From a phage, in the NCBI GenBank assembly GCA_026204955.1, contig GCA_026204955.1_4545.1: a DNA stretch of 44,324 nucleotides; one strand, given 5' to 3'. Below, piece by piece: positions 68 through 28,187 of this stretch (positions within the stretch are counted from its first letter, which is position 1; each line of letters starts with the position of its first letter). Below the pieces are notes generated by a model, which saw nothing but the letters and a program-made list of their open reading frames with translations, was not told the DNA's origin and did not search any database. The translations under genes were made by a program, and so were the position numbers.

Positions 68-2710
68 ATGGCAGATCAAGCAGCAGGCATCACGCTAAAG
101 GTCGATGCCTCGCAAGTAAAGACAGCTAATACCGCGCTGGATTCGTTCGCGCAGAAGTCTGAGAACACAGAACGGAAAGTCAAGAAATTAAACGACACCC
201 TAGGCAACTCGAAAAAGGTTACGAGTGACGCCGCGGGCGGGATGGAAAAGATAGCGACTGAATCGCAGCGTGCCGCCGACGGCATGACGAAGCAGGAGCG
301 ACTCGCCAGCCGCTTGGGCATGTCAACCAAAAACCTGGGCTTTGCCTCCCGAAATGCCGCATTCCAGTTACAGGATATAGCGGTCACGCTTGAGATGGGT
401 ATGCCGGTGCACCGCGTTATGCTCCAGCAGTTGCCGCAGTTAACCGGGGCGTTTGGTGGCCTTGGTAACACGCTGCGTTATCTTGCTGGCCTCCTCGGCC
501 CTGTTGGGATCGGCCTTGCGGCACTATCGGCAACTTTAGGCGTCGGGGTGGCGGTTACGACCCGTGCAGAAAACCAGGTCGCAGCGCTGAATAAGACGCT
601 GACGCTATCCGGCAATATCTCCGGCCTCACCGCTAACCAGATCCTTATGCTGTCGGAGAACGCGGAGCGCATGGGTGGGTCATTCCGCAAGACGCGTGAC
701 ACCATTCAGTCTCTCGCGGCGGCGGGCGTGAAAGCGGGTGCGGACTTCGGCGCGCTGGCTAAGATCGTTAATGACTTTGCAAAGGTGTCTGGGCAGCCGA
801 TTGAAGATGTGGTTGAGGCGGTGGCGAAGTTGTCCAACGACCCGGTAGGCGGCTTGCGCGCACTGGCGGACAGATACCACGTCGTAACCGAGGCACAAAT
901 CCAGCAGGTGCAGTCTCTGGTGGATGCCGGTCGTGAGACTGAAGCGGTGGCGCTGGCTAACAAAACAGCCTCGGCGTCGTTCTCGGAAATGACCAAAGAA
1001 GTTAAGGCCAACATGGGCACGCTTGAGCGGTCTATGGCTGCGGTCACATCGGCAGCGAAATCTATGTGGGACGCCATTCTTGATATTGGTCGCGCGCAGT
1101 CCTCAAATGAATCTGAGATGAAAGCGCGTGAGTCCTTGCAGCGCCTGACCACGGCGTACTATGCCGAGATGAGAGCGGTCAATGCTTCAGGTGGGGTAAT
1201 GACCGAGGCACAGAAAGCACGTATTAACATGCTTTATAGCGAAATGGTCGCCCAGGAGAAAGTAGTCGCATCGCTCACCCTGCGCAACCGTGCGGAGCGT
1301 GAAAACGCCAACGCCGCGGAACAATCAGCGAAGGCGAACGAGGAGGCCAACCGCACCGCCCGCGACCGCGCCGCGTTCGAGAAGGAATACGCCACCAACG
1401 CTAAGAAGAGCGCCGATGAGATCGCCCGCCTCAATTTGCTGAATAAGCGCGGCGTGATTGACGAGAAGGAACTGGCTGAGGCGGTGAAGCAGGTCAACGA
1501 GCGTTACAAAGACCCCGCACCGAAGAAGGCCGCGGCTGTTCGCGTGGATGCCGGGCTGAAAATGCTGGAAGTCGCGCGAAGCGAATTAGCCCAGCTTCGT
1601 GAGTCTGGAAAGCAGATCGAAGCCAACGCATCGACGCAGACCCGCACGCAACGCGCGCAAGCGGCCCTTAACAAGCTGATTGCCGACAACGAGCAGTTAA
1701 TCGCTGCGAGCAAAGAAAGGGCACTGACGGCAGCAGAGAAGCAGCAATTAGTCGAGTTCGGGCGCGTGAAGGAAGTACGCGAGCAGATCGTCGAAGAAGC
1801 CAAATTGCTGGACGCAAAAGAGAAGCAGGTCAAGGCGCACGCGCAGATCGACGCCTTCGTTAAGAACCAGAACGCCGAGCTAAAAGCCACCGCGGCGGGC
1901 TATGCGCTTTCCACTCGCGAAGCGGCAAACCTGCGTGAAGAATTGCAGCTAATTGACCGCCTGAAGCGGGTCGGAGCTAACGATACTGATATTGATCTGG
2001 CGGTATCTAAGCTGCGCGAAGTGCAGGAAGCACAGACCGGTGCTAACGCCTCGCTATGGGATGGCTTCAGCCGCGGGCTTAAGGATAGCGTGGATGAAAT
2101 GGGTAACGGCTACACGCAGATGACGTCACTCACAAAATTCACGTTCGGCGCTATGCAGGACACGATGAACGAGTTTTTCGAGACTGGCAAGCTGAACGCA
2201 AAGGATATGGTTAAGTCCATCCTGAGCGAATTAATCAAGCTGGCTACCTCGCAGGCATTCAAGTCCATCGTTAGCGCTTTCGGAGGCGACGGCGGCAAAA
2301 ACGGATTGTTCGGCGCTATCTTCTCTGGCATAACTAAGAATGCGGACGGAGGAGCGTACGCAGGGGGCAATCTCGCGGCCTATTCGGGGCAAGTGGTAAG
2401 CAAGCCCACCTTTTTCAGTTACGGCGTCCAGGCGTTCGCAAAGGGCGCGGGATTGATGGGGGAGGCCGGACCCGAGGCCATCATGCCACTGAAGCGCGGC
2501 CCGGACGGCAAACTGGGCGTTGCCGCTGCCGGTGTAGGCGGAGGGATGATTGTAACGACCAACGTTAACATGGGGACCGGTAAGACGGATACCAGTGTTA
2601 GCGGTCCAGACCCGCGCACCGCGCAGGCGTTCGGAAAGCAAATCACCGAGTCGGTCAAGGCCGAGATCGTGAAGGCGACGAAACCGGGTGGTGTACTTTA
2701 CAAACGATGA
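68..2710 (+). CDS. tail tape measure protein
   Basis: 880-aa ORF, helix-prone Ala/Gln/Glu-rich with Gly-rich C-terminus; sits immediately upstream of lambda M/L/K/I/J-like tail genes; RBS AGGGGA upstream of ATG 68. Confidence 0.75.
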   Translation: MADQAAGITLKVDASQVKTANTALDSFAQKSENTERKVKKLNDTLGNSKKVTSDAAGGMEKIATESQRAADGMTKQERLASRLGMSTKNLGFASRNAAFQLQDIAVTLEMGMPVHRVMLQQLPQLTGAFGGLGNTLRYLAGLLGPVGIGLAALSATLGVGVAVTTRAENQVAALNKTLTLSGNISGLTANQILMLSENAERMGGSFRKTRDTIQSLAAAGVKAGADFGALAKIVNDFAKVSGQPIEDVVEAVAKLSNDPVGGLRALADRYHVVTEAQIQQVQSLVDAGRETEAVALANKTASASFSEMTKEVKANMGTLERSMAAVTSAAKSMWDAILDIGRAQSSNESEMKARESLQRLTTAYYAEMRAVNASGGVMTEAQKARINMLYSEMVAQEKVVASLTLRNRAERENANAAEQSAKANEEANRTARDRAAFEKEYATNAKKSADEIARLNLLNKRGVIDEKELAEAVKQVNERYKDPAPKKAAAVRVDAGLKMLEVARSELAQLRESGKQIEANASTQTRTQRAQAALNKLIADNEQLIAASKERALTAAEKQQLVEFGRVKEVREQIVEEAKLLDAKEKQVKAHAQIDAFVKNQNAELKATAAGYALSTREAANLREELQLIDRLKRVGANDTDIDLAVSKLREVQEAQTGANASLWDGFSRGLKDSVDEMGNGYTQMTSLTKFTFGAMQDTMNEFFETGKLNAKDMVKSILSELIKLATSQAFKSIVSAFGGDGGKNGLFGAIFSGITKNADGGAYAGGNLAAYSGQVVSKPTFFSYGVQAFAKGAGLMGEAGPEAIMPLKRGPDGKLGVAAAGVGGGMIVTTNVNMGTGKTDTSVSGPDPRTAQAFGKQITESVKAEIVKATKPGGVLYKR

Positions 2711-2718
2711 TAAAATGG

Positions 2719-2745
2719 CCCTCACTACAACGTGGGGGCTTTTTT
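2719..2745 (+). terminator. hairpin + T-tract between tape measure and next tail gene (possible partial terminator)
   Basis: CCCTCAC-tacaac-GTGGGGG (one G-U pair) followed by CTTTTTT; lies inside the alternative 2707 start region. Confidence 0.25.
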
Positions 2746-3345
2746 ATGGCGCAAGGTACAATCACACTAACTAAGGGAAGTAAGACCATCACAGGCGTGG
2801 GAACCGCGTTCCTGAGCGAGATCGGGAAGGTCCGCGTATTTACCCGCATCGACGGCAACGACTACACCGGAAAAATTGCGGCATTCAACTCTAACACCGT
2901 CATCACCCTGGCGGATAACTGGGCCGGACCGACAAAAGCCGGTGCAGCTTATGAGCTAATCGAAGCGCACGACCCGCGATCAAACGAATGGCCCTATTAC
3001 TGGCACATGCAATTGCAAGGCGGCGGAGACGTGCAGTTGGCTTTCCGGTCCGAGGAATTGCAGTTTGGTAACGGTTACGGTCAGAACATCGCGGACGGCC
3101 CGAACGCCGAAACGAAACAGTTCCCCGTGCAATTCGTCGGACTGACTACCGACAAGTGGTGTAACCCTAAGCTGGTTTACAACTTCCTTCGCGGGCACTT
3201 CGTCAAACCGTTTGTCGTCACCGCGCCGGATGGCGAAACAGGTTTATTCGTGGTCGAGCGTTCGAGCTTGTCGTACACTGACAACGGGCACTACACGGCA
3301 ACGGTATCCGCCACCCTTAAGACTGCTATTGGATTCGTAAGATGA
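2746..3345 (+). CDS. minor tail protein (lambda gpM position); N-terminus homologous to tail fibre N-terminus
   Basis: ORF in track from 2707 (ATGA overlap with tape measure stop); second in-frame ATG at 2746 begins MAQGTITLTKGSKTITGVGTAF, which parallels the tail fibre start MAAGTLSVTNNSKAVVGVGTTF. Start choice uncertain (2707 or 2746). Confidence 0.5.
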   Translation: MAQGTITLTKGSKTITGVGTAFLSEIGKVRVFTRIDGNDYTGKIAAFNSNTVITLADNWAGPTKAGAAYELIEAHDPRSNEWPYYWHMQLQGGGDVQLAFRSEELQFGNGYGQNIADGPNAETKQFPVQFVGLTTDKWCNPKLVYNFLRGHFVKPFVVTAPDGETGLFVVERSSLSYTDNGHYTATVSATLKTAIGFVR

Positions 3346-4130
3346 ATAAACTATATCGCGAGGCGACGCGCTTTGACCCATCGGGACGCGTTCGCCTTAT
3401 TCACATTGACGCGCAGGACGTGGAGCCTGGCGACGGCGCGATCGGTGCGGGCCATCACTATTTTCACTATTGCTTTATTCCGCACACTGCCGAGGATATT
3501 GCCGCCGCAGGCGGGGACGAGGACAAGCTAAAGCCAAAATCTATCTTCTTCGGCGGGCAGGAATTCGAATTCTGGCCCTTCGATCTGTCCGGCCTTAACT
3601 TCTCCACATCAACGGCAGCAGAACCGCAGCTAACCATCGTCGATATTGGAGGCATTATCACCCGGCTGTCGCTGAATCACGACCAGCTACTGGGCGCGAA
3701 GGTTGAGATCATTGATACGTTCGCGAAGTTCCTGGATAACGGATCGGACCCAGACCCAACGCAAAAACGTGTCCAGGAGTATTACATCGACTCACAGGTC
3801 GGGCGCAATCCAGGCAAGCAAATCACCTTCGCATTGTCCTCACCCGCGGATATGGAGGGGCAAGTAGTTCCCCGCCGCCAGATCATGAACATGTGCGAAT
3901 GGGCGTTAAATGGGAAGTACGCCAGCGGTGACGGCTGCACGTGGAACCTTGCGAAGCCTGGTATCAAGTATTACGACGAGCGAGGTAATGAAGTCATCGC
4001 GATGAACATGGACCGATGCGGCGGCTGTTTGTCCGACTGTTATCTTAGATTTGGGCAAGGGCTTGCGGACCCTAAAGCGGCGGTGCTGGACTTCGGCGGC
4101 TTTCCGGGGTCCAGATTAATTAAGGGGTAG
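3342..4130 (+). CDS. minor tail protein L-like
   Basis: 262 aa, ATGA overlap with upstream gene; C-terminal Cys cluster (CxxC...DRCGGCLSDC) like the Fe-S motif of lambda gpL; gene order M-L-K-I-J. Confidence 0.6.
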   Translation: MNKLYREATRFDPSGRVRLIHIDAQDVEPGDGAIGAGHHYFHYCFIPHTAEDIAAAGGDEDKLKPKSIFFGGQEFEFWPFDLSGLNFSTSTAAEPQLTIVDIGGIITRLSLNHDQLLGAKVEIIDTFAKFLDNGSDPDPTQKRVQEYYIDSQVGRNPGKQITFALSSPADMEGQVVPRRQIMNMCEWALNGKYASGDGCTWNLAKPGIKYYDERGNEVIAMNMDRCGGCLSDCYLRFGQGLADPKAAVLDFGGFPGSRLIKG

Positions 4131-4132
4131 TC

Positions 4133-4873
4133 ATGTTAACGAAGAAGGTTAAACGCGATATCGCCGCACATGTTGCGGCATGTCTGCCGGAAGAAGCGTG
4201 CGGGCTGGTCGTCATGGTGGGCCGCAAACAAGTGTTTATCCCGTGCCTGAACGTCTTCGAAGACCCCACCGGCGCTCGCTCGCGAAAGGACGCGTTTACA
4301 ATTAGTGATATGGCCTGGATGGATGCCGAGGATATGGGCGACGTTGTGCGCGTAGTCCACTCGCACCCCGGTCAGCGCGAGCTAACACCGTCATTGGGCG
4401 ACGTCAACGGATGCAACGGCAGCGGCGTCGTCTGGACCATCACTAACGAATATGGCGACTTCATCGAGATCGACCCGGAAGACCCGCCGCTGGTAGGCCG
4501 CCGATTTGTTCTCGGGGTTACGGACTGTTACGGCCTCGTCATGGCATGGCATAAAAAGCAGGGCGTAAACCTGCCAGACTTCCGCGTACCGTACAACTGG
4601 TGGGAGGCAGGCGAAAACCTGTATATGGACAATTGGTATGGCGCGGGCTTCCGGGAGTGTGCGGAGAATACACCAGGGGCTATGGTCATCATGCAGATTA
4701 GCGCGCCCGTGCCTAACCATGCCGGAATCTACCTTCCGGGCAACCAACTACTACACCATATCTACGGCAGCCTGTCTAGCGTGATCCCCTTCCGGGCGGG
4801 ATTTTTCCGCGACAATGTGGTTAAATGGGTACGTCATAAAGACCTACCGGGGAATATCACAGAATGGCAATGA
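4133..4873 (+). CDS. tail assembly protein K-like (JAB/MPN + NlpC/P60)
   Basis: HSHPGQ...S..D JAB/MPN-type metal motif followed by Cys/His NlpC/P60-like region (CYGLV...H); position between L-like and I-like genes. Confidence 0.65.
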   Translation: MLTKKVKRDIAAHVAACLPEEACGLVVMVGRKQVFIPCLNVFEDPTGARSRKDAFTISDMAWMDAEDMGDVVRVVHSHPGQRELTPSLGDVNGCNGSGVVWTITNEYGDFIEIDPEDPPLVGRRFVLGVTDCYGLVMAWHKKQGVNLPDFRVPYNWWEAGENLYMDNWYGAGFRECAENTPGAMVIMQISAPVPNHAGIYLPGNQLLHHIYGSLSSVIPFRAGFFRDNVVKWVRHKDLPGNITEWQ

Positions 4874-5481
4874 CCACCTTTAAACTATACGGCGTCTTAG
4901 GACGTCGTTTCGGTAAAGTGCATAAGCTGGACTGCTTCACGCCGGGCGAGGGTATCACCGGCCTGTGTGTGAAGTTACCAGGCTTACAGGACTTTCTAAT
5001 GTCGGCCCACCTGGACAACATGATGTTCAAAGTGCGCAAGGGCAATCACACTCTGACCGGCTACGATGAGCTGGGCGAGTTCCACGGCAATCGCGTAGTG
5101 ACCATCGCGCCGGTTATGACTGGTGCAAAAAGCGGACTGGGCCAATTGCTGGCTGGTGTAGCAATCGTGGTGGCGTCGTTCTATACCGGCGGGCTTGCGA
5201 CTGCCGCTTTCGGAGCTTCAGCGGCTACAGCGGCCTCTATCGGCGCAGCGACGTTTTCGTTCGGGATGTCGATGGCGCTGGGTGGCGTTATGCAATTGTT
5301 ATCACCGCAACCGAAAGGATTGCAGACACGGCAGGACGTGGATAACAAGGCGTCGTACGCGTTCGGCGGACCAGTGAACACAACCGCGCAAGGCACGGCA
5401 CTTGGTGTATTATGGGGCGAGCGTGAGATCGGCGGCGCTATTATTTCCGCCGGAATCGTAACCGAGGACTTGAACGAATGA
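4864..5481 (+). CDS. tail assembly protein I-like
   Basis: 205 aa, N-terminal ubiquitin-like region then Gly/Ala-rich hydrophobic C-terminus; overlaps K-like and J-like genes as in lambda. Confidence 0.5.
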   Translation: MAMTTFKLYGVLGRRFGKVHKLDCFTPGEGITGLCVKLPGLQDFLMSAHLDNMMFKVRKGNHTLTGYDELGEFHGNRVVTIAPVMTGAKSGLGQLLAGVAIVVASFYTGGLATAAFGASAATAASIGAATFSFGMSMALGGVMQLLSPQPKGLQTRQDVDNKASYAFGGPVNTTAQGTALGVLWGEREIGGAIISAGIVTEDLNE

Positions 5482-8400
5482 CGATTATCTACGACGTCAC
5501 TGGGCATAAAGGCGGCGGCGGCAAACAGCACACCCCGCAGGAAACGCCGGACAGCCTGCATTCCCTGGCTAAAATCCGCATCTTGCTTGCACTGGGTGAG
5601 GGGGAATTCGAAAGTATTACCAGCGCAAGCGAATTGCGGCAGCGTGTATACCTGGACGGCACGCCGATCCAGAACGCAGACCTGTCAGAAAACTTCCCCG
5701 GCGCGCGCGTGGAGTTCCGCCCGGGCACACAGCACCAGGATGTGATCCACGGATTTTCAGCGGTAGAAAGCGAGCAATCCGTCGGTGTAAAACTGGAAAA
5801 CGGCACGCCGTGGGTGCGCCAGATTAATGACACCAGTCTTGACGCCGTGCGAATTCGCATCGGCATTCCAGCTTTGTACACTAACGAGGACAATGGCGAC
5901 CTGGTTGGCGGGCGCATCGACTACAAAATCGTTGTGTATACGGATAACGCCGACCCGCGTGAGTTCAGATTCGCCGCCGTTGGTAAAACAATGTCGCTAT
6001 ATGAGCGCGACCACCGCATCGAATTACCGCCGAACGTGAATACCGGCTGGCGAGTGGAGGTGCACCGCATAACGGCAGACTCCACATCGGCGAAAGTGGT
6101 GAACGATATTCAGGTGCAATCAATCACTGAGATTATCGACGCCCGCCTGCGCTACCCGCTAACCGCGCTGTTGTTCGTGGAGTTCGACGCTAAAGCGTTC
6201 CAGAACATCCCGCGCGTATCCATTAAGTGCAAAGGCCGCAAAGTGCTGGTGCCAAACAACTATGACCCGATTAATCATACCTATTCGGGCGACTGGGATG
6301 GCACGTTTAAACGCGCCTGGACGGACAACCCTGCGTGGCACTGGTACGATATTTGTATTACAGAGCGCTTCGGCCTCGGTCGGCGTATCAAACCGCAAAT
6401 GTTAAACCGGTACGCGCTCTACCAGATTGCGCAGCGCTGCGATCAGTTGGTCAGCGACGGCAACGGCGGGCAAGAAATCCGCTTTAAGAATGATATGTAC
6501 ATTCAGTCACAGACGGATGCCTGGACCGTGCTTAAGGATTTAGCCGCTATCTTTGCCGGTATGACCTGGTGGGGCAACCAGATGTTGAATATCGTAAGTG
6601 ACCAGCCGGTCGCAGCGGTATCGCACACTATCACCAACGCCTCGGTTATTGATGGCAGATTCGACTACGCGTCAGGGAGCCAGAAAACTCGCTATTCCAC
6701 GTTCGCGGTAGCATACGGCAACCCGAAGAACCACTATGAAGACGCCATCGCAACGGGCCAGCGTGTCGAACTGGTGCGCCGCCATAAAATCAACCGCCTT
6801 GATATAACGGCGATCGGCTGTACGCGTGAGTCAGAAGCGCAACGACGTGGGCACTGGGCGCTAATCTCCAACCAGCTTGACCAGCAAGTTAGCTTTAAGG
6901 TTGGCATGGAGGGACTTTTCTTTATTCCGGGTAGCGTAGTCGCGATCGCCGATACAAACATTTCTGGCGGCTTCGAGACACGCGGCGGTCGCCTGTTGTC
7001 GGACCCTGGCACGCGTACCGTGCTTAACACGGACAGCGAAATCACGTTCCGCCCAGGTGATAAATTCCTGGTACGCACCAATAGCGGTAATGTGGAGACT
7101 CGCGAGATCGCCAGCGTCAACGGCAACAAGGTTACGCTAAAAACCGCACTGGACGCCGACCCGATTCCTGATCAGCCGTTTTGCGTCGATGGCAACGATA
7201 TCCAGTTGCAGAAGTTCCGCATCACCGACCTGGAATATGACGACTCTACCAGCACTTTTTCAGTGCGCGGGATCGAGTACAACGATAGCAAATATGATGC
7301 CGTTGATAATGGCGCTCGCCTTGATCCGGGCATCTTTACTCAAGTGCCCGACGGTGTAATGAAGGGGCCAGAGTCCGTAACCATCACCCCGTCGCAGATT
7401 TCATCGCAAGGCCAGCTAATCACCAACGTGGATATTGTATTCCCTCCGGTGAAGGACGCCGTGGTGTATGAAATCCAGTGGCGACGTACCAGCTTGCAGA
7501 ATATGGAAATCCAGTGGGGTAACGACTGGGTTAACATCCCCCGCACGGCATCGAACGGCGCGCACATCCCTAACGTGTTCTCCGGTAACTACCAGGCACG
7601 CGTCCGCGCAATCGGTATGGGCGAGATTTCATCCCCGTGGGTGTCGTCTGCCATCACGCCGATAGAAGGTCGTCTCGGCGGGCTTAACGCGCCTATCATC
7701 ACCAACGCGATTTCGGGCCTCCACCAAATTTTGTGGAAGTGGAACCACAACAACGCCGCGACGGATATTTCGTACACCGAGCTTGAAGTGCGCAAGACCG
7801 GTGAAACGGAATGGAAATTTCTTACCAACGTCCCATACCCAGGGTCAGATTATGCGCAAACGTCGCTGGAGTTCGGGATCTATCAGCAGTTGCGCGCCCG
7901 CGTAGCAGATAAAATCGGCAACCTGTCAGACTGGTCAGCCCCGTTTGAAGGCCAGGTGAGTGACAAAGTCGACGAATACATGAAGGGGCTGGATGACGAG
8001 TTCTTGACTTCCGAAGATGGCAAACACTTCCAGGAAGCGATCGACACCATGCCGCAAGGCATTTACGAGGCTATGCTGACCGACGCACAGCAGCTATTCA
8101 ACGCCCGCGCCGAGTACAAAGGGATTTACGCAGAAATAACGGTCGCGTATAACGTGGCGGCGGACGCGCATAAAGCCGTAGCGCAACTGGAAACGTTGAT
8201 CGGCACGCGCCTTGATGACGCTGAGGCATCAATCCACACGTTGCAGACTGCGCAAAGCACACATGAACAAGCGTTCGCCCAGTACCAGCAAACTGTTGCC
8301 GCTAAGTTTTCGGAACAGGAAGCCGCCATCCAGCAGGTACAAACGGCAACGGCGGACGTAGCTGGCGCGCTGGCGGAGTATAAGACCCAGGTCGCGGCAC

Positions 8401-10222: not shown

Positions 10223-12538
10223 ATGGCAGCGGGTACTCTATCCGTAACGAACAACAGCAAGGCGGTAGTAGGGGTCGGCACGACGTTTACCGCGTTTAAA
10301 GCTGGCGACTTCTTAACGCTGGTGGTAGGACAAGTCCCATACACCGTGGCAATCGCGTCCATTGAAAGCGCAACCGCGCTTACGCTGGTGCTGCCGTTCG
10401 ACGGCCCAACGGCAACCGGCCTCGCGTGGGATGGTGTTAAGCGCGATACCATGTCACTGGCGACGATGGGCGTAACCGTACAGGCGCAGAAAGCGTTGCG
10501 ATTGATGATCTCCGATGAAAACAACTGGCGTGCAATCTTCGGAGACGAAGAAGAAATCTCGATCACGCTGCCGAATGGTCAGGTAATGCAGGGTATGTCG
10601 TGGGGCTACCTGTCGTCTTTGCTGAAGGAAGTAGACCCTGTTGAGATGCGCAACCTGCAACAACAAGCCGCCGCATCTGAAGCCGCCGCGCAAGGATTCC
10701 GCAACGAGGCGGAAGGCTTCAAGAACACCGCGAATACCGCGAAAGACGACGCTGTAACTGCGAAGACCGCGGCTGAAACGGCGCAGGGTAAAGCCGAGAC
10801 AGCTAAAACGGCAGCAGAGTCCGCGAAGACCGCCGCGGAGACAGCTAAATCGCAGGCCGTAACCGCTAAAGACCAGGCTAAAGTATTCCGCGACGAGGCT
10901 GAGGGCTTTGCAAATAGCGCGGACGCAAAAGATAAAGTACCGTATGCTGGTGCGATGTTGGCAACTGCAACTGGAATTGCAGACATGCTCAAGCAGTTGC
11001 GCGATAATGTTAAGGGTGGATTCTGGCGCATCAATGATACATCTCAGTTCCCTGAGGGCGAGATGAAACCTTTTGTACACGGATCAGGTATTTGTGGCGG
11101 TGCTGGGGATACATTCTTTGCTATTAATACTGCTTACCCATATGGGCGAATTAAAGTTTACACGGGTAACAATAGCGCTATCGATGGTACGAGTGGAAGG
11201 GTGGGTGCCCTTGAGTTGGCTGGGCTAGATTCACCCACCTTTACGGGTACAGTGAATGCGCCTAAGATTCGTGTTGGCAATGTTACACTACGGCCCGTAA
11301 CTTCCGGAGAAGGAAGCGGAGACGGGGTTGTTTGGGAATCCCGCAACGCCACGGAGGCAAGTTTTGGCATTGCGAATGTCGGCGGTGGGTCCGCGGTTTT
11401 CCACAACTACTCAAAACCGGCAAACGGATCCGGCGTGGCTACAGGAGTGCTTATTGGGGGGTACGGGTCGCGCCCGTGGACCGGAACGGAATACACAGAC
11501 CATAGTAACGTGTCCCAGCACTTCCTGATGGACGGAACCGCTTCGGCTACTAACCACGGCGGCTGGTTTAGGTTGCTAACAACCCCATTGAATAAGACCA
11601 GCGCCGATCGTAGGCAAACATTCGCGACCAGCAACAACGGCGATTTATATGTTGGGTACGATGTGCCTATGGGGCTTTATAAGCTAACGCAGGAAAGCTA
11701 CAACGGATTGGAATTATTAAACGGTCGCGGTCTTAAACAAGTAAATAACTCGAATAATGAAGTAGCCTTAATCACTCCACGCAATGGGCTAACGGCTAAT
11801 ATAAATTTCAGGGGTGTTGCTTTTGACGGCACAATGACCGGAGCTAAAGGCGCCACTCAGCCGGGCGACAACATGTGGTTATCTTTTGCAGGGCATGACG
11901 GTGTAAGATTCACGGGTGCCGCTGCCGGTATGCGGATTCAGGCGTCGACTGGATGGTCAACCACAAACACGCAATGCGGAATAACGTTTGCGACAACGAA
12001 AGCAGGGTCTACGCAGAGGGTGGACCGGTGGAGTATTACTAGCGACGGGTCCCTGTCCCCCGCGGCTGACAACACATACCCGATCGGCAGCGCCGTTTCC
12101 CGTGTTACCGCAGTCTTCGCAGCAAACGGCGCCATACAGACCTCGGATGCCAGACTCAAGACCGAGGTTAGAGGTTTAACAGAGGCTGAGATGGGTGCCG
12201 CTAAAGAAATCGCCCGCGAGGTTGGTATTTTCCAGTGGCTTGCGCGAGTAGCTGAAGAGGGGGATGAGGCGAGGCTCCATGCCGGTATTACCGTGCAGAA
12301 AGTGATGGAAATCATGAGGTCTTATGGTCTGGACCCCTTGAAGTATGGATTCGTGTGCTACGACGAATGGGAGGAGACTTCAGAGGTTATCAGCGACCCC
12401 GATGATAATTCGAAGTCGACGATAAAGATAACTCCCGCTGGCAATAGGTATAGCTTGCGATATTCGGAACTAAACGTGTTTATCGCCCGAGGACTTGAGC
12501 AAAGAATCTCAGAACTGGAGGCTAAGTTAGCTGGTTGA
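10223..12538 (+). CDS. tail fibre protein with C-terminal intramolecular chaperone (S74-like) domain
   Basis: 771 aa from ATG 10223 (GAGGA RBS); Ala/Lys/Thr-rich heptad-like repeats (AAETAKTAAESAKTAAETAKSQ); C-terminal segment TSDARLKTEV...GLDPLKYGFV resembles the autoproteolytic chaperone domain of phage tail fibres and endosialidases. Confidence 0.7.
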   Translation: MAAGTLSVTNNSKAVVGVGTTFTAFKAGDFLTLVVGQVPYTVAIASIESATALTLVLPFDGPTATGLAWDGVKRDTMSLATMGVTVQAQKALRLMISDENNWRAIFGDEEEISITLPNGQVMQGMSWGYLSSLLKEVDPVEMRNLQQQAAASEAAAQGFRNEAEGFKNTANTAKDDAVTAKTAAETAQGKAETAKTAAESAKTAAETAKSQAVTAKDQAKVFRDEAEGFANSADAKDKVPYAGAMLATATGIADMLKQLRDNVKGGFWRINDTSQFPEGEMKPFVHGSGICGGAGDTFFAINTAYPYGRIKVYTGNNSAIDGTSGRVGALELAGLDSPTFTGTVNAPKIRVGNVTLRPVTSGEGSGDGVVWESRNATEASFGIANVGGGSAVFHNYSKPANGSGVATGVLIGGYGSRPWTGTEYTDHSNVSQHFLMDGTASATNHGGWFRLLTTPLNKTSADRRQTFATSNNGDLYVGYDVPMGLYKLTQESYNGLELLNGRGLKQVNNSNNEVALITPRNGLTANINFRGVAFDGTMTGAKGATQPGDNMWLSFAGHDGVRFTGAAAGMRIQASTGWSTTNTQCGITFATTKAGSTQRVDRWSITSDGSLSPAADNTYPIGSAVSRVTAVFAANGAIQTSDARLKTEVRGLTEAEMGAAKEIAREVGIFQWLARVAEEGDEARLHAGITVQKVMEIMRSYGLDPLKYGFVCYDEWEETSEVISDPDDNSKSTIKITPAGNRYSLRYSELNVFIARGLEQRISELEAKLAG

Positions 12539-12542
12539 AAAA

Positions 12543-12570
12543 GAAAGGGCCATACGGCCCTTTCTTAATT
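12543..12570. terminator. bidirectional terminator between convergent tail fibre and 12565 gene
   Basis: GAAAGGGCC-atac-GGCCCTTTC perfect 9-bp stem, T-rich on both flanks. Confidence 0.65.
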
Positions 12571-13140
12571 TGAGTTTTCCCAGTCCATCTTGCGCCGCAC
12601 CAGCGGGCTTTCGTAGTAATCCTTGCCTTCAACTTCCACTAAAGGCCAATCATTAACAATGACGTATGGCTCCGCGATATCTTCAATAACGCCGTGCGCG
12701 CTATGTTGTCCGAACGATACGCCCACCAGGATAACACCGGCAACGCGACGGGTCAGATATTCGCGAGCGCAACGTGCCTCAACCAGTCCGCGACGGATGC
12801 CGCTGGTGGCCTTAACCTCGTAGGTCCAGACGGCATCGATCACATGCTCGCGGAAGTCTGGACCGGACTTCACCTTGCGCTTGCCGACCATGATGATATC
12901 GCCGCGGTCAATGGTGTTGGCGCTAAACAGGCCGGTACGCATAAGTAAGCCTTGCGGTACGCAACTACGCCCGCCCGCCTGCCCCTCAAGGTACATGCCC
13001 GCAAACATTTCGCCCAGCACACCGACCAGTCGGCTTTGCTTGCACGCGTCAGACTTTAAGCGCCACTGATCAAACTCGATGCTTGCTATCATTGCAGCCA
13101 GGTGGAATTGTTTACCAGATATTTCATATTCGCCGTACAT
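12565..13140 (-). CDS. hypothetical protein, PD-(D/E)XK nuclease-like motif
   Basis: 191 aa; GPDF...(14 aa)...YEVK arrangement matches the PD-x(n)-(D/E)xK signature. Motif-only inference. Confidence 0.35.
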   Translation of the reverse strand: MYGEYEISGKQFHLAAMIASIEFDQWRLKSDACKQSRLVGVLGEMFAGMYLEGQAGGRSCVPQGLLMRTGLFSANTIDRGDIIMVGKRKVKSGPDFREHVIDAVWTYEVKATSGIRRGLVEARCAREYLTRRVAGVILVGVSFGQHSAHGVIEDIAEPYVIVNDWPLVEVEGKDYYESPLVRRKMDWENSN

Positions 13141-13182
13141 CGTGTGGTCCTCATTGATGCGGGCCGAAGCCCGCGATTAGAA

Positions 13183-13704
13183 TTATTTCAGTGCGCTATG
13201 TACCAGTGTTTTTTCCATGTTGCGGAAGTCTTCCGGCGTCATGAGGATTTTGGATCCGTCTTCGCCGGTGAGCACGACCATAGGCTGGACTTCTTGGTCT
13301 GCAATGCCGAAATTGGCGGCTTTTACAGTCTTACCCACCGATGCAGAAGGATTCCACGTCCCCGCGGAGGCGATGGGCCAACCTTTTAGGCTGTCGAATT
13401 GTGCTGCCGTTGTGTCGATCTGAATCTCGTCATGCACGGTCATGTACGACTCGCCCAGCAAGGCCGCATACGCTACCAGGTCGACGATATTGTCTTCCTG
13501 GTGCTTACGGTGCTGGCGCACCAGCTTCAGGCAGATCAAGAAGGTCCAGGCTTCTTGCTCGGTCAGGTCGCGACCGGTAAGCGCGTTAAACACGGCGGCA
13601 ATTTGTTTCGCGCTGCGTTCCTCTTTCGCGTTGTCATAGCCGTTTTCTTTTCCGCGCTGTTCCATAGTGGTGGCGGCGTTTTTGCAGTATTCGTATGCTT
13701 TCAT
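13183..13704 (-). CDS. hypothetical phage protein (helical N-terminal domain, resembles a conserved phage DUF)
   Basis: 173 aa; N-terminal segment ERSAKQIAAVFNALTG...LICLKLVRQHRK...DNIVDLVAYAALLGE resembles a phage domain of unknown function (family name from memory, unverified). AGGA RBS; structured 5' UTR hairpin 13721-13741. Confidence 0.3.
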   Translation of the reverse strand: MKAYEYCKNAATTMEQRGKENGYDNAKEERSAKQIAAVFNALTGRDLTEQEAWTFLICLKLVRQHRKHQEDNIVDLVAYAALLGESYMTVHDEIQIDTTAAQFDSLKGWPIASAGTWNPSASVGKTVKAANFGIADQEVQPMVVLTGEDGSKILMTPEDFRNMEKTLVHSALK

Positions 13705-13757
13705 GATGTGGTCCTTTTTCGGGGAGGCCGTATTGCCTCCCGACGCGTTAACTATAG

Positions 13758-13779
13758 TGCAACCAACCTATTGGTTGCA
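13758..13779. promoter_or_regulatory. perfect palindromic operator-like site TGCAACCAA-ccta-TTGGTTGCA
   Basis: 22-bp palindrome with 9-bp arms overlapping the stop codon of the HAD-like gene and upstream of the 13704 gene. Confidence 0.5.
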
Positions 13780-14238
13780 AGTGAATTTTGCAACGTTTAT
13801 TGCGTAAATTTTCGGGACCAAATCACCACACGCCCGACGAATTGCCGCGATGTTCTTCTCGCAATCTTCAATGATGACCAGTTCCGACACGTCTGCGTAG
13901 CAGACCATTTTGAACACGGCGCACGCCTTAAACTCTGGCGGCGGTGTGTCGTCCAGCATGTGGCGCATAAACAACCGGCCCACCGGGAAGACCTCCAATT
14001 GCTCGGCGGTGGTGCCCCAACATTCTCGCTGCCGGTTTGTCAGATACGCTATCTCGAAGCCTTGCTCTTTGTACATGCGCAGCAGCGGCAGCATATCCAT
14101 GTTCAGATCTTCGCGTACGTGCGCTTTGTGCCACTTTGCCCAAAATGTTGATTTCGTTTTTATACCCGGAACCAGGTCGGCGCGTGCATCACTCGAACCA
14201 TTAATAACGCCATCAAGATCACAAATCAGTAGTTTCAT
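13768..14238 (-). CDS. HAD-superfamily phosphatase-like protein
   Basis: N-terminal MKLLICDLDGVI matches HAD motif I (DxDG[TV]); 156 aa, size typical of phage nucleotidase/phosphatase-type HAD proteins. Confidence 0.5.
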   Translation of the reverse strand: MKLLICDLDGVINGSSDARADLVPGIKTKSTFWAKWHKAHVREDLNMDMLPLLRMYKEQGFEIAYLTNRQRECWGTTAEQLEVFPVGRLFMRHMLDDTPPPEFKACAVFKMVCYADVSELVIIEDCEKNIAAIRRACGDLVPKIYAINVAKFTCNQ

Positions 14239-14468
14239 TTTAAGCTCTCAATAAGGGTGTATCGGGCGCTGCGCGCGGTGAAGGAGTTGCACACGAAATG
14301 GCAACGCTGAGTCATGACAAGCCAACCGGTGAGGTCAAGGCCCAGGATGTATTCGGGGCGAGACGCGCGCACCACACGATTGCGTCGCGGGTCGATGTTA
14401 TAGTCTCTTTGCATTTGGTCTACGACCGCGGGGTCGCGGTCAACGATTAAGATATTCATGTAACTCAC
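14235..14468 (-). CDS. hypothetical protein
   Basis: 77-aa ORF overlapping the neighbouring genes in an operon; no recognisable motif. Confidence 0.3.
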   Translation of the reverse strand: MSYMNILIVDRDPAVVDQMQRDYNIDPRRNRVVRASRPEYILGLDLTGWLVMTQRCHFVCNSFTARSARYTLIESLK

Positions 14469-14925
14469 TCTCGCTCATTATTTCAATTTGTGCGCTGCCG
14501 ATGGGTGGCGCTTCGTCAAAGATTATCAATTGCTGGCACTTGTTATTGCTCGGCCCGACTTCACCGGTGACGGCGTGAATGAATCTAATCCGCCAGTCCA
14601 GAAGAATTATCAGGTTTGCAGTCTTCCTGGCCAACTTCGCCCACTTCGTCGACGTGTCCTGATTCAGTAGCATGACAGTCCGGCGTCCGTGCGCTGCGCA
14701 CTCGACCCACGGCAGCGGATCGGAATACGGCGGATTGCACCATTTCCACCCTTTCAACTCTGCCCAGTCCACATCAAGCGCGCTGTGTTCCGCCGTGAAG
14801 TAACGCGGTAGCAGGTGGTTTGCATCGCTTGCCGCCATATCGTAACGGAATCGGTACTTCCGACGAAGCGGTTTAAATAAAGCTGGCGGCGTGCGCCAGC
14901 TATCTTTTTGCTCATTCTCCGTCAT
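14440..14925 (-). CDS. DNA N6-adenine methyltransferase (phage Dam-type)
   Basis: 161 aa with WRTPP near the N-terminus and the NPPY catalytic motif, as in small phage Dam-family N6-adenine methyltransferases. Confidence 0.6.
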   Translation of the reverse strand: MTENEQKDSWRTPPALFKPLRRKYRFRYDMAASDANHLLPRYFTAEHSALDVDWAELKGWKWCNPPYSDPLPWVECAAHGRRTVMLLNQDTSTKWAKLARKTANLIILLDWRIRFIHAVTGEVGPSNNKCQQLIIFDEAPPIGSAQIEIMSESELHEYLNR

Positions 14926-15370
14926 AGTCTGGATCTATCGCATACAGGGCGGTTTTCTTGCCGCTAGACAGCACACGTAGGACTCGGGACATCTCCTCCC
15001 TACTGAGCGGTCGGCTATCGGAATAGTAGCTGCCGTTTGCACGCCACGCTATATGCACCAGTCCTTTCCGCGGGATCGAAGACTGGCGGCCTTTGGGGCG
15101 CACGTACTCCTCGGCCCGTTTGCAATGCTCGCGCAGACATTCGGCAGTGATGCGGTTTAGCGCAACGCTGGTTGTGTATTCGGTGCGCTGCATAATCCCC
15201 ATCAATTCGAAAAGCAGTTCGAAGCGCTCCTCTAGCTCCTTGCGCATCTTTTCCTCGCCTTCATAGCTAGCCAGGTAGGTATCCGCCAGCGTGTTCGCCC
15301 GTTCGGCTTGCTCGCGGGCTTCGAGGCATTGCGCGGCCCAGTAATTTTTCTCTTCTTGTAAAATTTCCAT
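14912..15370 (-). CDS. hypothetical protein
   Basis: Track ORF to 15430 (TTG); preferred ATG 15370 (MEILQEEKNY) with GGAGA RBS 8 nt upstream; first gene after promoter at 15419-15447. Confidence 0.35.
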   Translation of the reverse strand: MEILQEEKNYWAAQCLEAREQAERANTLADTYLASYEGEEKMRKELEERFELLFELMGIMQRTEYTTSVALNRITAECLREHCKRAEEYVRPKGRQSSIPRKGLVHIAWRANGSYYSDSRPLSREEMSRVLRVLSSGKKTALYAIDPDYDGE

Positions 15371-15389
15371 CGTGTTGTCTCCAGGTATT

Positions 15390-15416
15390 AAAAAAGGGCG
15401 TCCAAACCGGACACCC
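15390..15416 (-). terminator. rho-independent terminator within leftward operon (after HNH-like gene)
   Basis: Reverse strand reads GGGTGTCC-ggttt-GGACGCCC then T6 (one G-U pair); promoter-like element immediately upstream. Confidence 0.5.
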
Positions 15417-15418
15417 TC

Positions 15419-15447
15419 AATATAATGCAACCTATATGATTATGCAA
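15419..15447 (-). promoter_or_regulatory. sigma70-like internal promoter of leftward operon
   Basis: Reverse strand -35 TTGCAT (15447-15442), 17-nt spacer, -10 TATATT (15424-15419); 17-mer identical to the site at 10196-10212. Confidence 0.45.
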
Positions 15448-15452
15448 CCAAT

Positions 15453-15776
15453 TTACGAATAAAAATTTGGGTCGCGCGCAACGTCTACCAGATACAGGTT
15501 GCTCATGCGGTTGCCGTAGTGCCCTGGAGTGCGCTGGCGGCACACAACGGCGAAGCCTGGAGGGATTGTATGGCCCGTCTCAATAATCCACGCCACGCGT
15601 GCACCAGACAGCGTCTTGCCGTTGCATTCGATGCGCGTGCCGCCATCGGCAGTGTTAAGGTTGCCAATTTTGCAGCCGGTGGACTTCAGACGAATGACGC
15701 CGGTTTTGCTGTCGTAGGAGAATAACTGGTTAGTCATTGCAACCGAAAAATCAATGGCTTCGAATGTAGTATTCAT
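15453..15776 (-). CDS. HNH-family endonuclease-like protein (possibly degenerate)
   Basis: 107 aa; segment AWIIETGHTIPPGFAVVCRQRTPGHYGNRMSNLYLV parallels HNH_3-type homing endonuclease cores (...G..VDHIDGN..NNR..NL.LV). Start ATG overlaps the stop of the upstream extension frame. Confidence 0.4.
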   Translation of the reverse strand: MNTTFEAIDFSVAMTNQLFSYDSKTGVIRLKSTGCKIGNLNTADGGTRIECNGKTLSGARVAWIIETGHTIPPGFAVVCRQRTPGHYGNRMSNLYLVDVARDPNFYS

Positions 15777-16009
15777 TTTAAATTTTCCTCATTGACCGCT
15801 ATCGCGAAGCCGCGCGGGGTGAGCGACCGGATTAATTTTGTGCGGGCTGATTTGCCTCCGAGGCGACTATACTGCTTCGAGTACCCTTTTTCAACGAAAA
15901 CAGGTTTCTTCTCTGGCATACGGAAGCCGTTGCCGGTCCATAAGCAGGTCAGCTTCGGATATGAATCGCGGGCGTTGATGTATTCCGGGAAGAGCGGGTG
16001 TACGTCATC

Positions 16010-16483
16010 CTACGGCAGATATCCCCCATACTCCCACGGGTCGAATGAGTGATCCGGCTTGCGCCACTGGGTGGAAAGCACACTGCGCGGATTCTCAATC
16101 ATATATGGCACTTCGAAGAAGTCACCCAGGTAAGCGGCGATCTTCGCGGTGCGCACCGCCTTAAGCTGAAAGGCTGGGTCTTTAGCTCGCTTGCGCGGGA
16201 AAGCGGGCGCACCGCTCACTGCCAGATCCGTGCACGGAGGAAACGCATAGATGATATCTGGCGTACCGAAATCGCCATTCATCGCACGGTCTACAAAGTC
16301 CAGATCGATAAACTCATTGCGATACCGGATTCCGCGACCATAAATCCGGTAGTCAAGGTAAGACCCGTGATCGGCTTCGGAGTAGTTGAAGCAATAACAC
16401 TTATGCCCCATCTCGGCAGCACGCTCAATCATCAAGCCGCTGCCGTCAAACAACGACCAGATTGTCATTTTAGCAATAGTCAT
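16010..16483 (-). CDS. DNA cytosine-C5 methyltransferase-like protein (N-terminal catalytic motifs; interrupted by in-frame TAG)
   Basis: 157-aa ORF with LFDGSG (motif I-like), FPPC (motif IV PC-like) and ENP (motif VI-like) at spacings typical of C5-methyltransferases. ORF ends at TAG 16012-16010 but the same frame stays open for 78 more codons to TGA 15775-15773. Confidence 0.4.
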   Translation of the reverse strand: MTIAKMTIWSLFDGSGLMIERAAEMGHKCYCFNYSEADHGSYLDYRIYGRGIRYRNEFIDLDFVDRAMNGDFGTPDIIYAFPPCTDLAVSGAPAFPRKRAKDPAFQLKAVRTAKIAAYLGDFFEVPYMIENPRSVLSTQWRKPDHSFDPWEYGGYLP

Positions 16484-17904
16484 TTGCGCGCCTTTTTAGC
16501 TTTCATGTACTCCATCAAGTCGTCTTGAATATCTCGCTTGCTGTCGCGACGCTCGGCGACCAATTCGTCCAGTGTCCCGCGCGCCTGGATAATGTAGACG
16601 AATACCGGTCGAGGGTGTCCGGCCTGCATCTGGCGAACCGGCCCGATACGTTCAACGATCTGCGAAAAGTGCTCAAAGTTCCAGGTATCGGAGAAGATTG
16701 CCAGGTGATGACCGCCGTCCTGCAAGTTAAGGCCGTGGCCTGCCGATGCCGGGTGTGCAAACATGATGGGGATCTCGCCCCTGTTCCACGCTTCCATATC
16801 CTTATTGCCCTGCTTACCCTTACCCAACGCGACGCCGTGCGGAAATTTCTTCTTAAGACGTGCCAGGTCATGCTTATACTGATACGCAACGAGCAACGGC
16901 GCGCCGTTCAACTCCTCCACGATACTTTCCAGCGCGTCCAGCTTCGCGTCGTGGATCTTCACCCACTCGTCGGTCCGTTCGCCGTCTTCGTCCACCTTAT
17001 ACACAGCGCCGGAAGCAAGCTGAAGGCACTTAATTGTCTTCGATGCCGCGTTCGCCGCTTCCACCGTTCCGCTTTCCAGTTCGGCAAATAGCTCGCTTTC
17101 AAACTGGTCGTAAATCTTGCGGGCTTTCTTCGGCAGGTCCACAACAACAGGCGTATAGATTGGCTTGTCGCACCCGAAGTATTCAGCCGCGTCAACGGTG
17201 AGGGATACATCTGACAGACGTTGTTGTATCTCTTTCTCGGAGTTCTTTAGCGGAGCGTGCTGCATAGTGAAGCTGCCAGGCTTAACAGGCTTGCTAATGA
17301 ACCAGCGGTCGGTAAATGCCTTATAGCTACTGCCGAGGCGTTCGCCACCGTCGACAAACCACGTCTGACCCCATAAGTCTTTCAGCCCGTTGGGTGCGGG
17401 TGTGCCGGTAAGGTTAATCCAGCGCTTGACGTGTTTATGTGCAATCGCTGCCATTGCGCGGGCGCGCTTGCTCCCCTGCTTGCTACGATATCCTTTCAGC
17501 TTAGTCGATTCATCGGCAACAACGACCGTAAAGGGCCACGCATCGCCGTAATAGTCGACCAGCCACTCAACAACATCGTAGTTAACACAAACCACGTTAG
17601 CGTCGCTCTCCAGCGCGGCTATGCGGTCCTTCTCTGGTCCAGTGCCGTCTACGACCAGCAGGGATGAGAACCGCCATTTCTCCTGTTCCGGGGGCCATGT
17701 ACCCGACGCAACACGCAGCGGGGCCAGCACCAGTACGCGGTCCTCATGATGGGACAGGACGCCAGTCTGGAACATTTTATTCAGCGCCCACATTGTCGCG
17801 CCGGTTTTACCGGATCCCATTGTCGCCCAGATATTACATCGCTTATGCTTGAGGATGAACGAGGTTATCAACTTCTGATATTCGCGGCGTCGGAATCGTG
17901 CCAT
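16480..17904 (-). CDS. SNF2/DEAD-like superfamily-2 helicase
   Basis: Track ORF to 17994; preferred ATG 17904. Walker A-like MGSGKTG and DExx-like VVADESTKLKG; about 474 aa; adjacent to VRR-NUC and DNA polymerase genes. Confidence 0.65.
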   Translation of the reverse strand: MARFRRREYQKLITSFILKHKRCNIWATMGSGKTGATMWALNKMFQTGVLSHHEDRVLVLAPLRVASGTWPPEQEKWRFSSLLVVDGTGPEKDRIAALESDANVVCVNYDVVEWLVDYYGDAWPFTVVVADESTKLKGYRSKQGSKRARAMAAIAHKHVKRWINLTGTPAPNGLKDLWGQTWFVDGGERLGSSYKAFTDRWFISKPVKPGSFTMQHAPLKNSEKEIQQRLSDVSLTVDAAEYFGCDKPIYTPVVVDLPKKARKIYDQFESELFAELESGTVEAANAASKTIKCLQLASGAVYKVDEDGERTDEWVKIHDAKLDALESIVEELNGAPLLVAYQYKHDLARLKKKFPHGVALGKGKQGNKDMEAWNRGEIPIMFAHPASAGHGLNLQDGGHHLAIFSDTWNFEHFSQIVERIGPVRQMQAGHPRPVFVYIIQARGTLDELVAERRDSKRDIQDDLMEYMKAKKARK

Positions 17905-27944: not shown

Positions 27945-28158
27945 AACCCCAGTCTTTCAGACTAGACGGGGGTCAACGGCCCCCCTCGTCTGAGACTGCA
28001 TAAAATCCGGGGATTGCAAAATACACGGCAGCATGATGCGTATTGCGGTCGTTGATGAACTAGGCAACCAATGCGGGTTGCATTATGCTGAGTGAAAAAT
28101 GCAGTTTGCAGTCACAGCAGATAGCGATCAACTTTTTCATGCGCGTGATTAATATTGG

Positions 28159-28187
28159 TTGCATTCACCCCGGCACCCTGCTATATT
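28159..28187 (+). promoter_or_regulatory. promoter for 28216 operon
   Basis: -35 TTGCAT (28159-28164) within ATTGGTTGCAT, 17-nt spacer, -10 TATATT (28182-28187); a second ATTGGTTGCA overlaps the -10 and start region. Confidence 0.45.

Follow-up and report, generated by a model that had tools for sequence, protein, structure and literature searches.

A stretch of phage DNA of 44,324 nucleotides (nt), NCBI GenBank assembly GCA_026204955.1, contig GCA_026204955.1_4545.1 (hereafter the window), carries six small minus-strand open reading frames (ORFs) between positions 12,565 and 15,370, and these make up the accessory, promoter-distal section of the leftward early/replication block in an Escherichia Dhillonvirus, an HK578/SECphi18-like siphovirus. 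With a probability of roughly 0.7, we consider the block an ordinary conserved set of loosely associated, nonessential DNA-metabolism and host-interface functions, and not one pathway, because the gene for a 152-amino-acid (aa) protein and a neighboring Dcm-like gene come and go among relatives, additional ORFs are inserted, deletions in the ksap1 region are tolerated, and evolutionary rates within the block span tenfold. An earlier note on this DNA had viewed the genes as one set for DNA modification and anti-restriction or nucleotide salvage; we found nothing that ties the six together, given that one natural genome lacks the 152-aa gene and that phages with deletions in the ksap1 region are viable. 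The six genes, in order of position, are as follows.

12565-13140, minus strand: putative 191-aa divergent nuclease of the PD-(D/E)XK fold, last gene of the operon (fold model and invariant residues)
13183-13704, minus strand: 173-aa DUF6378 (domain of unknown function 6378) protein, with an N-terminal DUF6378 (about residues 1-88), a variable linker, and a conserved C-terminal tail
13768-14238, minus strand: predicted 156-aa stand-alone HAD phosphatase of the Pnkp-phosphatase or class B-C acid-phosphatase type (motifs and profile)
14235-14459, minus strand: Ksap1 homologue; translation gives 74 aa if begun at the ATG (14459) and would give 77 aa from a GTG at 14468
14440-14925, minus strand: predicted 161-aa Dam-family N6-adenine DNA methyltransferase (PF05869, NPPY)
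14912-15370, minus strand: 152-aa orphan protein whose N-terminal half is an acidic coiled coil and whose C-terminal domain is basic

When positions 12000-16600 were used as the query, 159 phage records were matched, almost all from Escherichia Dhillonvirus, and 139 of them covered at least 80% of the query in a single place with 80-95% identity. The DNA of the window itself was only about 91-94% identical to the nearest sequenced records. All six ORFs were found on the minus strand where the earlier note had placed them, and its calls of a PD-(D/E)XK-like nuclease, a conserved-DUF protein, a HAD phosphatase, and a Dam-type adenine methyltransferase agreed with the domain, profile, and model evidence given below. 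The genes, their order, and their strand were the same in SECphi18 (gp48-gp53), Oekolampad/Bas18 (bas18_0028-0033), welsh, and UDS3lw; in the annotated relatives Oekolampad/Bas18, UDS3lw, and SECphi18, the layout was identical to that of the window, with a convergent tail-fibre gene on one side and, on the opposite strand, the six small genes followed by the genes for an HNH protein, a Dcm-like protein, an SNF2 helicase, a VRR-NUC protein, and DNA polymerase I. Protein identity within the genus was 74-99%, or 58-99% with Ksap1 counted. Order and orientation were also kept in two divergent metagenomic relatives (L004 and L005), where protein identity was only 27-72%. The ratio of nonsynonymous to synonymous substitution rates (dN/dS), calculated by the Nei-Gojobori method between the window genes and those of six congeners, was 0.03-0.44 across all six ORFs, which points to purifying selection. 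Thus, the wide record coverage, the low dN/dS, and the order kept in divergent relatives argue that the six ORFs are real genes and not chance reading frames.

Within this conserved frame, the single genes behaved differently. The dN/dS was 0.03-0.06 for the nuclease gene, 0.03-0.13 for the Dam gene, 0.04-0.12 for the HAD gene, 0.10-0.28 for the DUF6378 gene, 0.11-0.37 for ksap1, and 0.19-0.44 for the 152-aa gene, the least constrained of the block. Ksap1 and the 152-aa protein, the two that evolve fastest, appear to be the likeliest to act at the phage-immunity interface. A natural Dhillonvirus genome (L031; IMGVR_UViG_2595698459_000001, 5054-5135) cleanly lacks the 152-aa gene, so that the promoter-like element P1 and the hairpin described below lead straight into the Dam start codon.

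Small extra ORFs were observed in several relatives, namely, bas18_0034 of Oekolampad (L001, 5827-6069), which lies after P1 and is missing from the window, and others in L004 (6846-7287) and L005 (4960-5166 and 2848-3276). These sites fall in two intergenic spots, one after P1 and one between the HAD and DUF6378 genes, and the spots therefore seem to act as moron insertion points.

The earlier note had regarded the parts of the block as individually uncharacterised, which does not apply to the 77-aa protein. By orthology and position, this protein is Ksap1 (KpAvs2-stimulating protein 1), a published trigger of the defence protein KpAvs2, and the ORF can take that name. Ksap1 of SECphi18 consists of 74 aa and is encoded between methyltransferase and phosphatase genes (Nat Commun 2024, PMC11564622); the window protein was 89% identical over 74 aa to SECphi18 gp51, and its gene likewise lies between the methylase and phosphatase genes. 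KpAvs2 binds Ksap1 directly, Ksap1 is necessary for defence, and phages that escaped KpAvs2 carried L47R, T50P, or deletions that removed a portion of ksap1 along with a portion of the upstream gene (PMC11564622). Because escapers with partial ksap1 deletions are viable, Ksap1 is considered dispensable. As shown for SECphi18, the host sensor reads this small, dispensable protein as an infection signature. Ksap1 is conserved in almost all Dhillonviruses, and its natural variants differ in recognition (PMC11564622). Identity within the genus was 58-96%. The window protein keeps L39, L47, T50, and F60 and has a valine at the position of K30; V30 is one of the three changes that jointly abolish recognition of the SECphi6-type Ksap1.

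The 161-aa protein next to Ksap1 matched PF05869 over its full length (E = 8.3e-36; 123.6 bits against a cut-off of 28.1) and has NPPY at residue 64, whereas its TIGR01712 score of 86 bits stayed under the equivalog cut-off of 97. It thus shares NPPY with the PF05869/TIGR01712 phage Dam family, of which it is a small member with a sub-equivalog score. Judged from this motif, it would transfer a methyl group from S-adenosylmethionine to the N6 of adenine. PADLOC matched it to generic methyltransferase models only. GATC was mildly underrepresented in the genome, with 154 sites against 197 expected (z = -3.2). A nonspecific methylase like Hia5/Hin1523, a type of enzyme that carries FxGxG and a target recognition domain of about 90 residues (PMC3299994), was also considered and dropped as unsupported, since a link to PF05869 is not given in that source.

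The 191-aa protein had no match in Pfam, NCBIfam, or PADLOC and no sequence match in the PDB, and its PHROG family, phrog_10558, is labelled "unknown." The family is tiny: a word-indexed search returned 5 clusters, and an exhaustive scan of 1.84 billion representatives returned 9 matches, 2 of which were spurious repeat proteins. In 10 aligned sequences with identity down to 26%, E44, D81, E108, and K110 were invariant. AlphaFold2 gave a model with a mean predicted local distance difference test (pLDDT) score of 89.2 and an alpha-beta-beta-beta-alpha-beta core, in which E44 lies in helix 1, D81 at the start of strand 2, and E108-x-K110 on strand 3; the core fold of PD-(D/E)XK enzymes and the placement of their catalytic residues in the proper secondary-structure elements were thus both present in the model. 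Foldseek matches to the PDB were weak, the top one being R.SwaI (E = 0.03), and those to viral models were uncharacterised proteins from phages, of which some bear the name restriction endonuclease. A like core with E...D...ExK occurs in I-Ssp6803I, in the archaeal Hjc resolvases, and in the type II enzymes NhoI, MspI, and SwaI. These data support the view that the protein is a divergent PD-(D/E)XK member with no close solved relative. From its motif and modelled fold, it would cut DNA through a metal site formed by D81, E108, and K110. Wherever the contig of a homologue was examined, it belonged to a phage, and the homologues were encoded last or near last in the leftward block, shortly before convergent tail-fibre/tailspike or lysis genes. 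A reading as a homing endonuclease was rejected on account of this fixed position, the 94-98% identity within the genus, and the dN/dS of 0.03-0.06.

The 156-aa protein carries the HAD motif I as DLDGV at residues 7-11, with D7 and D9 invariant, and motifs II-IV were recognized as T67 or S in L(T/S)NR with an invariant R69, K103, which a single sequence lacks, and an invariant D125. A profile built from 7 sequences matched Pnkp1 in the PDB (4xrp, residues 206-294, within the phosphatase domain) at E = 4e-7 with motifs II-IV aligned, followed by a class C acid phosphatase (2i33, 0.006) and T4 Pnkp (5uj0, 0.016); the match to Acid_phosphat_B was weak. PDB searches with single sequences of the nuclease, HAD, Dam, and Dcm-like proteins were empty or at chance level. 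The protein matched phrog_415 at 7e-36, a family labelled "polynucleotide kinase." This name was rejected as wrong: neither a P-loop nor a kinase domain was found, so the bifunctional Pnkp architecture is absent, and with only 156 aa and no P-loop the protein is best taken as a stand-alone phosphatase and not a kinase. It has the DxDxT-type core and motifs I, II, and IV in common with Pnkp1 (4xrp), T4 Pnkp (1ltq/5uj0), and the class C acid phosphatases but, unlike Pnkp, it stands alone and has its own conserved cap (R19..P24..W33..W36-H37..E43..N46). Asp7 would be the nucleophile that removes a phosphomonoester, as predicted from motif and fold, and the substrate would most likely be a 3'-phosphate on nucleic-acid ends or nucleotides, as for the Pnkp phosphatase domain. 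Homologues in the Serratia phage Smarc3 and in Schitoviridae are also encoded near DNA methylase genes.

The 173-aa protein matched PF19905 (DUF6378) over residues 16-85 (E = 1e-9; 39 bits against a cut-off of 27.1), and when 16 aligned homologues were scanned permissively against Pfam, all matched DUF6378 and nothing else. Homologues within the genus ranged from 130 to 199 aa owing to insertions and deletions in a hypervariable linker, and they share a conserved C-terminal tail of 30 residues. Ten polar residues were invariant in the domain (R17, D24, E29, K60, R63, K67, D71, N72, D75, and E85). Profile and single-sequence searches of the PDB gave no match, and AlphaFold2, run on the 16-sequence alignment, predicted four helices with a mean pLDDT of just 45.6. 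DUF6378 may resemble the DUF1599/MazG-like domains, although a literature search on DUF1599 was uninformative. The PHROG label "phosphofructokinase" is unfounded, with no Pfam match behind it. The domain was present in 335 phage records from many genera. In Schitoviridae and Vibrio phages, it comes directly after the gene for DNA polymerase; it precedes thymidylate synthase in FSL SP-058 and lies near a Dcm-like gene (47% identity) in the Pantoea phage LIET2 (L035, 1478-3378). In the lambdoid phage mEp021 (mEp021_30, _31, and _33; L037, 2460-4728), homologues of Dam (40%), DUF6378 (45%), and the short Dcm-like protein (51%) are encoded within 2.3 kb, with DUF6378 between the other two; this cluster differs from the window in its order, in a membrane protein gene that lies between, and in lacking the HAD, nuclease, ksap1, and 152-aa genes. 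From these neighbors, namely, polymerase, thymidylate synthase, and methylases, DUF6378 would belong to DNA-metabolism modules, and a link to DNA methylation modules is suggested by the clusters in the unrelated phages mEp021 and LIET2.

The 152-aa protein had no match in Pfam, NCBIfam, PADLOC, or the PDB, whether searched by sequence or by profile. Its conserved C-terminal motif reads AW..NG..Y.D.R...K..LYA. Homologues formed 213 clusters, and the 120 listed were all at least 75% identical and came from Dhillonvirus-type genomes or contigs. The name "DNA ligase," given to phrog_10530 and going back to the GenBank annotation of SSL-2009a, was rejected, as neither a KxDG motif nor a ligase domain match was found. 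A TTG start that would give 172 aa was likewise discarded, since it crosses the conserved hairpin and the relatives begin at the ATG. A 100% identical copy of the protein was seen on a single NCBI record with the locus tag ORQ59_002239, an E. coli Third Party Annotation assembly. The window is thus a complete phage contig: a genome of the virulent Dhillonvirus type was assembled along with that of a bacterial isolate, owing either to a carrier state or to contamination.

Four putative regulatory elements divide or bound the block, as listed here.

12541-12566, both strands: bidirectional intrinsic terminator of the tail-fibre gene (plus) and the leftward operon (minus), with an 11-bp palindromic stem, AAGAAAGGGCC/GGCCCTTTCTT
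13751-13780, minus strand: promoter-like element P2, TTGCAA-18 nt-TATAGT, upstream of the DUF6378 gene and overlapping the 3' end of the HAD gene
15388-15418, minus strand: intrinsic-terminator hairpin with U-run inside the operon, 10- to 11-bp stem and U6
15419-15447, minus strand: promoter-like element P1, TTGCAT (15447-15442)-17 nt-TATATT (15424-15419), with a direct pair of the TTGGTTGCA motif

The hairpin at 12541-12566, which separates the 191-aa gene from the convergent tail-fibre gene, has a folding energy on the minus strand of -18.5 kcal/mol (z = -3.7) followed by UUUUU, and U-runs occur in both directions. Leftward transcription would stop here. The distal position in the leftward operon that the earlier note had given these genes was borne out, as was the promoter/terminator junction that it had proposed at 15390-15447. 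On the minus strand, the junction reads TTGGTTGCAT-aatcatataggttgcat-TATATT, immediately followed by GAGGGTGTCCGG-TT-TGGACGCCC-TTTTTT and then by GGAG and the ATG. For the hairpin (15418-15394), the folding energy was -17.6 kcal/mol (z = -4.7), a value matched by 0 of 200 shuffles, and a run of six U residues follows, so its sequence has the hallmarks of an intrinsic terminator. The whole element of P1 and hairpin was nearly invariant across six genomes, L004 and L005 among them, and AATTGGTTGCAT was invariant in all six, while in L005 the hairpin stem still pairs through compensatory changes. P2 is built on an inverted pair of the same motif, is kept in five congeners, and is followed by a conserved hairpin in the 5' untranslated region.

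The 9-mer TTGGTTGCA occurred in 10 exact copies in the window and in 28 copies with at most one mismatch, compared with 11.9 expected, and 0 of 100 shuffles reached 28. Copies were located at 10197, 13758/13771, 15426/15443, 24932, 28155/28186, 28739, and 38491/38505/38522, among other places; many were paired, mostly ahead of gene starts, and several had a TATATT-like hexamer 17 nt past the TTGCAT part. The layout TTGGTTGCAT-17-TATATT recurred at 28155-28185. The copies would represent a family of phage promoters or, alternatively, the operator of a regulator. The near-invariance in six genomes, together with the excess and pairing of the TTGGTTGCA copies, argues that P1 is functional.

On this basis, two small sub-operons may be inferred. 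P1 (15447-15419) would drive the genes for the 152-aa coiled-coil protein, the Dam-family methylase, Ksap1, and the HAD phosphatase, and P2 (13780-13751) would drive those for the DUF6378 protein and the PD-(D/E)XK nuclease. The starts and stops of the four P1 genes overlap by 14 nt (152-aa gene/Dam), 20 nt (Dam/ksap1), and 4 nt (ksap1/HAD), which indicates that the four are probably translationally coupled. The hairpin at 15418-15394 would probably halt read-through from the replication genes. The predicted start of P1 transcripts, about 7 nt past the -10 hexamer at about 15412, falls within the 5' arm of the hairpin, and RNA from there folds at only -5.4 kcal/mol; P1 transcripts would therefore lack the 5' arm of the hairpin and pass through it.

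Two further genes lie directly upstream of the block.

15453-15776, minus strand: putative 107-aa HNH-like endonuclease (phrog_99 at 5e-15, no Pfam match), outside the range covered by the earlier note
15773-16483, minus strand: short Dcm-like C5-methyltransferase gene of 236 codons with an amber codon (phrog_757; FDGSG, PPC, and ENP motifs)

The HNH-like gene was at the matching place in all relatives, L004 and L005 included. The earlier note had also described a C5-methyltransferase-like gene upstream, and the motifs of such an enzyme are indeed present, but the frame is broken in the window. An amber TAG at 16010-16012 replaces codon 158 (GGYLP*DDVHP) and cuts off the final 79 residues, whereas relatives have GAG or GTG there; the remainder was 98-100% identical, and dN/dS in the relatives was 0-0.04. 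The intact homologue matched only phrog_757, with no PF00145 match and no PDB sequence match. Neither IMG/VR nor the JGI metagenomes yielded a contig with the amber version (0 in each), compared with 25 IMG/VR contigs that carry a sense codon. Since the amber codon is private to the window genome, it reflects either an error of assembly or a loss of very recent date. The Dcm-like gene is missing altogether from L005 and can thus be dispensed with in the wider group. According to published work, Retron-Eco1 is activated by phage Dcm and Retron-Sen2 by phage Dam; that triggering of Retron-Eco1 could be a selective reason for the loss of the Dcm-like gene is speculation. The short (about 230-aa) Dcm-like family was also widespread in IMG/VR contigs from outside Dhillonvirus (L011, L013-L016, L018-L021, L023-L026, L028-L030, and L033), with 39-48% identity, and these share YLP-x-DDVHP, the site of the amber codon; PF00145 was not matched by intact members of the family either.

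Several points weigh against our view of the block as a loose set with two promoters. The biochemical roles of the five proteins other than Ksap1 are predictions from sequence. A simple sigma-70 consensus scan did not list P1, whose -35 hexamer fits just 3 of 6 positions, so that the TTGGTTGCA motif might serve a phage regulator as its operator and not be part of a promoter. A distant phage of about 42 kb (L040; Logan contig from SRR29472108, 41,984 bp, 2674-6594) has retained the SNF2 (42%), HAD (36%), and nuclease (36%) genes in unchanged order, but an MT-A70 adenine methylase takes the place of the PF05869 Dam of Dhillonviruses; from sequence, this looks like a nonorthologous replacement. 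Together with the placement of DUF6378 in mEp021 and LIET2, where it adjoins Dam and Dcm-like genes, the set in L040 hints at more coupling.

Such coupling would be explained if the nuclease were gated by methylation, in which case the PD-(D/E)XK enzyme would attack DNA without the phage adenine methylation, that is, DNA of the host or of a competitor, while the methylase protects and the HAD enzyme processes the products. The nuclease, HAD phosphatase, and methylase would then be one functional unit, analogous to the T4 endonucleases II/IV with modified cytosine. In accord with this, the three genes have the same order in every nuclease-bearing Dhillonvirus-type locus, the trio recurs in L040 with the Dam-family enzyme swapped for an unrelated MT-A70, and the structural neighbors of the nuclease include many type II restriction enzymes. 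E. coli DNA, however, is already Dam-methylated, so a specificity other than GATC would be needed; the viable SECphi18 escapers delete part of ksap1 and part of an "upstream gene" that may be the methylase; in L043, the nuclease is encoded with no recognisable methylase or HAD gene alongside; and the co-occurrence may merely reflect inherited genome architecture. We therefore regard this explanation as improbable. We hold it equally doubtful that the trio is an old unit, kept from Dhillonviruses to the distant 42-kb group, that degrades unmodified DNA of hosts or rivals and recycles the products.

No better placed is a pathway for the nucleotide pool or DNA modification, in which DUF6378 and the HAD phosphatase would support the methylases and polymerase by salvaging nucleotides, by sanitizing the pool, or by producing or removing a modified precursor. 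The neighborhoods of DUF6378 fit it, both after DNA polymerase in Schitoviridae and Vibrio phages or beside thymidylate synthase in FSL SP-058 and beside the Dam and short Dcm-like genes of mEp021 and LIET2, as do the class C acid phosphatase match of the HAD profile and the many invariant polar residues of DUF6378, which are as in an enzyme or ligand binder. Against this, neither the empty PDB sequence search nor the low-scoring model links DUF6378 by fold or family to a nucleotide enzyme, the "phosphofructokinase" label has no Pfam match, L040 has the HAD and nuclease genes without DUF6378, and the block holds no other nucleotide-metabolism genes. This proposal is thus also unlikely.

T4 Pnkp acts in end repair against PrrC. 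A counter-defence role of this kind, in which RNA or DNA ends cut by host anticodon or abortive-infection nucleases would be mended or trimmed by the Pnkp-type phosphatase, perhaps jointly with the nuclease, agrees with the best solved relatives of the HAD protein being the phosphatase domains of the RNA-repair enzyme Pnkp1 and T4 Pnkp and with literature accounts that Dhillonviruses are targeted by tRNA-cutting systems such as Retron-Eco7, but it is the least probable of all, since the kinase domain is absent, the block offers no ligase once the "DNA ligase" label of the 152-aa protein is set aside, and a 3'-phosphatase alone cannot restore a cleaved tRNA.

Of the functions that the earlier note had combined, DNA modification is supported, anti-restriction is not, and nucleotide salvage is at most a possibility. 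In the phenotyping of the BASEL collection, Queuovirinae were remarkable for resistance to type I and type II restriction-modification systems, particularly compared with Dhillonvirus and Drexlerviridae, and in the related Drexlerviridae, resistance to restriction was not tied in any simple way to the methylase genes. Anti-restriction is thus not supported by this comparison, and the genome instead avoids several 6-bp palindromes and is without EcoKI sites. Window-wide, AAGCTT occurred 0 times against 13.5 expected and CTGCAG 2 times against 14.6, whereas CCWGG was overrepresented (141 against 95.5). Other published triggers of defence in Dhillonviruses were also considered, and none was placed in the block: the RAZR trigger is the portal, escapers of Retron-Eco8, Borvo, and Hachiman map to SSB, polymerase, and the like, and the Retron-Eco7 trigger in "phage98" is an unnamed gene.

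The block is thus a fresh instance of a known, widely sequenced one, with one part characterised, four with a sound biochemical family assignment, and one orphan; a specialist would not be surprised by a region so well conserved and partly characterised. For Dhillonvirus annotation, the names "DNA ligase" (152-aa protein) and "phosphofructokinase" (DUF6378 protein) can be removed as unfounded and "polynucleotide kinase" (phosphatase) corrected. One protein and two classes of enzyme encoded here are described in the literature as triggers of defence: KpAvs2 responds to Ksap1, Retron-Sen2 to phage Dam, and Retron-Eco1 to phage Dcm. Because three published trigger types are present, the block would be useful for seeking further interactions between phages and bacterial immunity.

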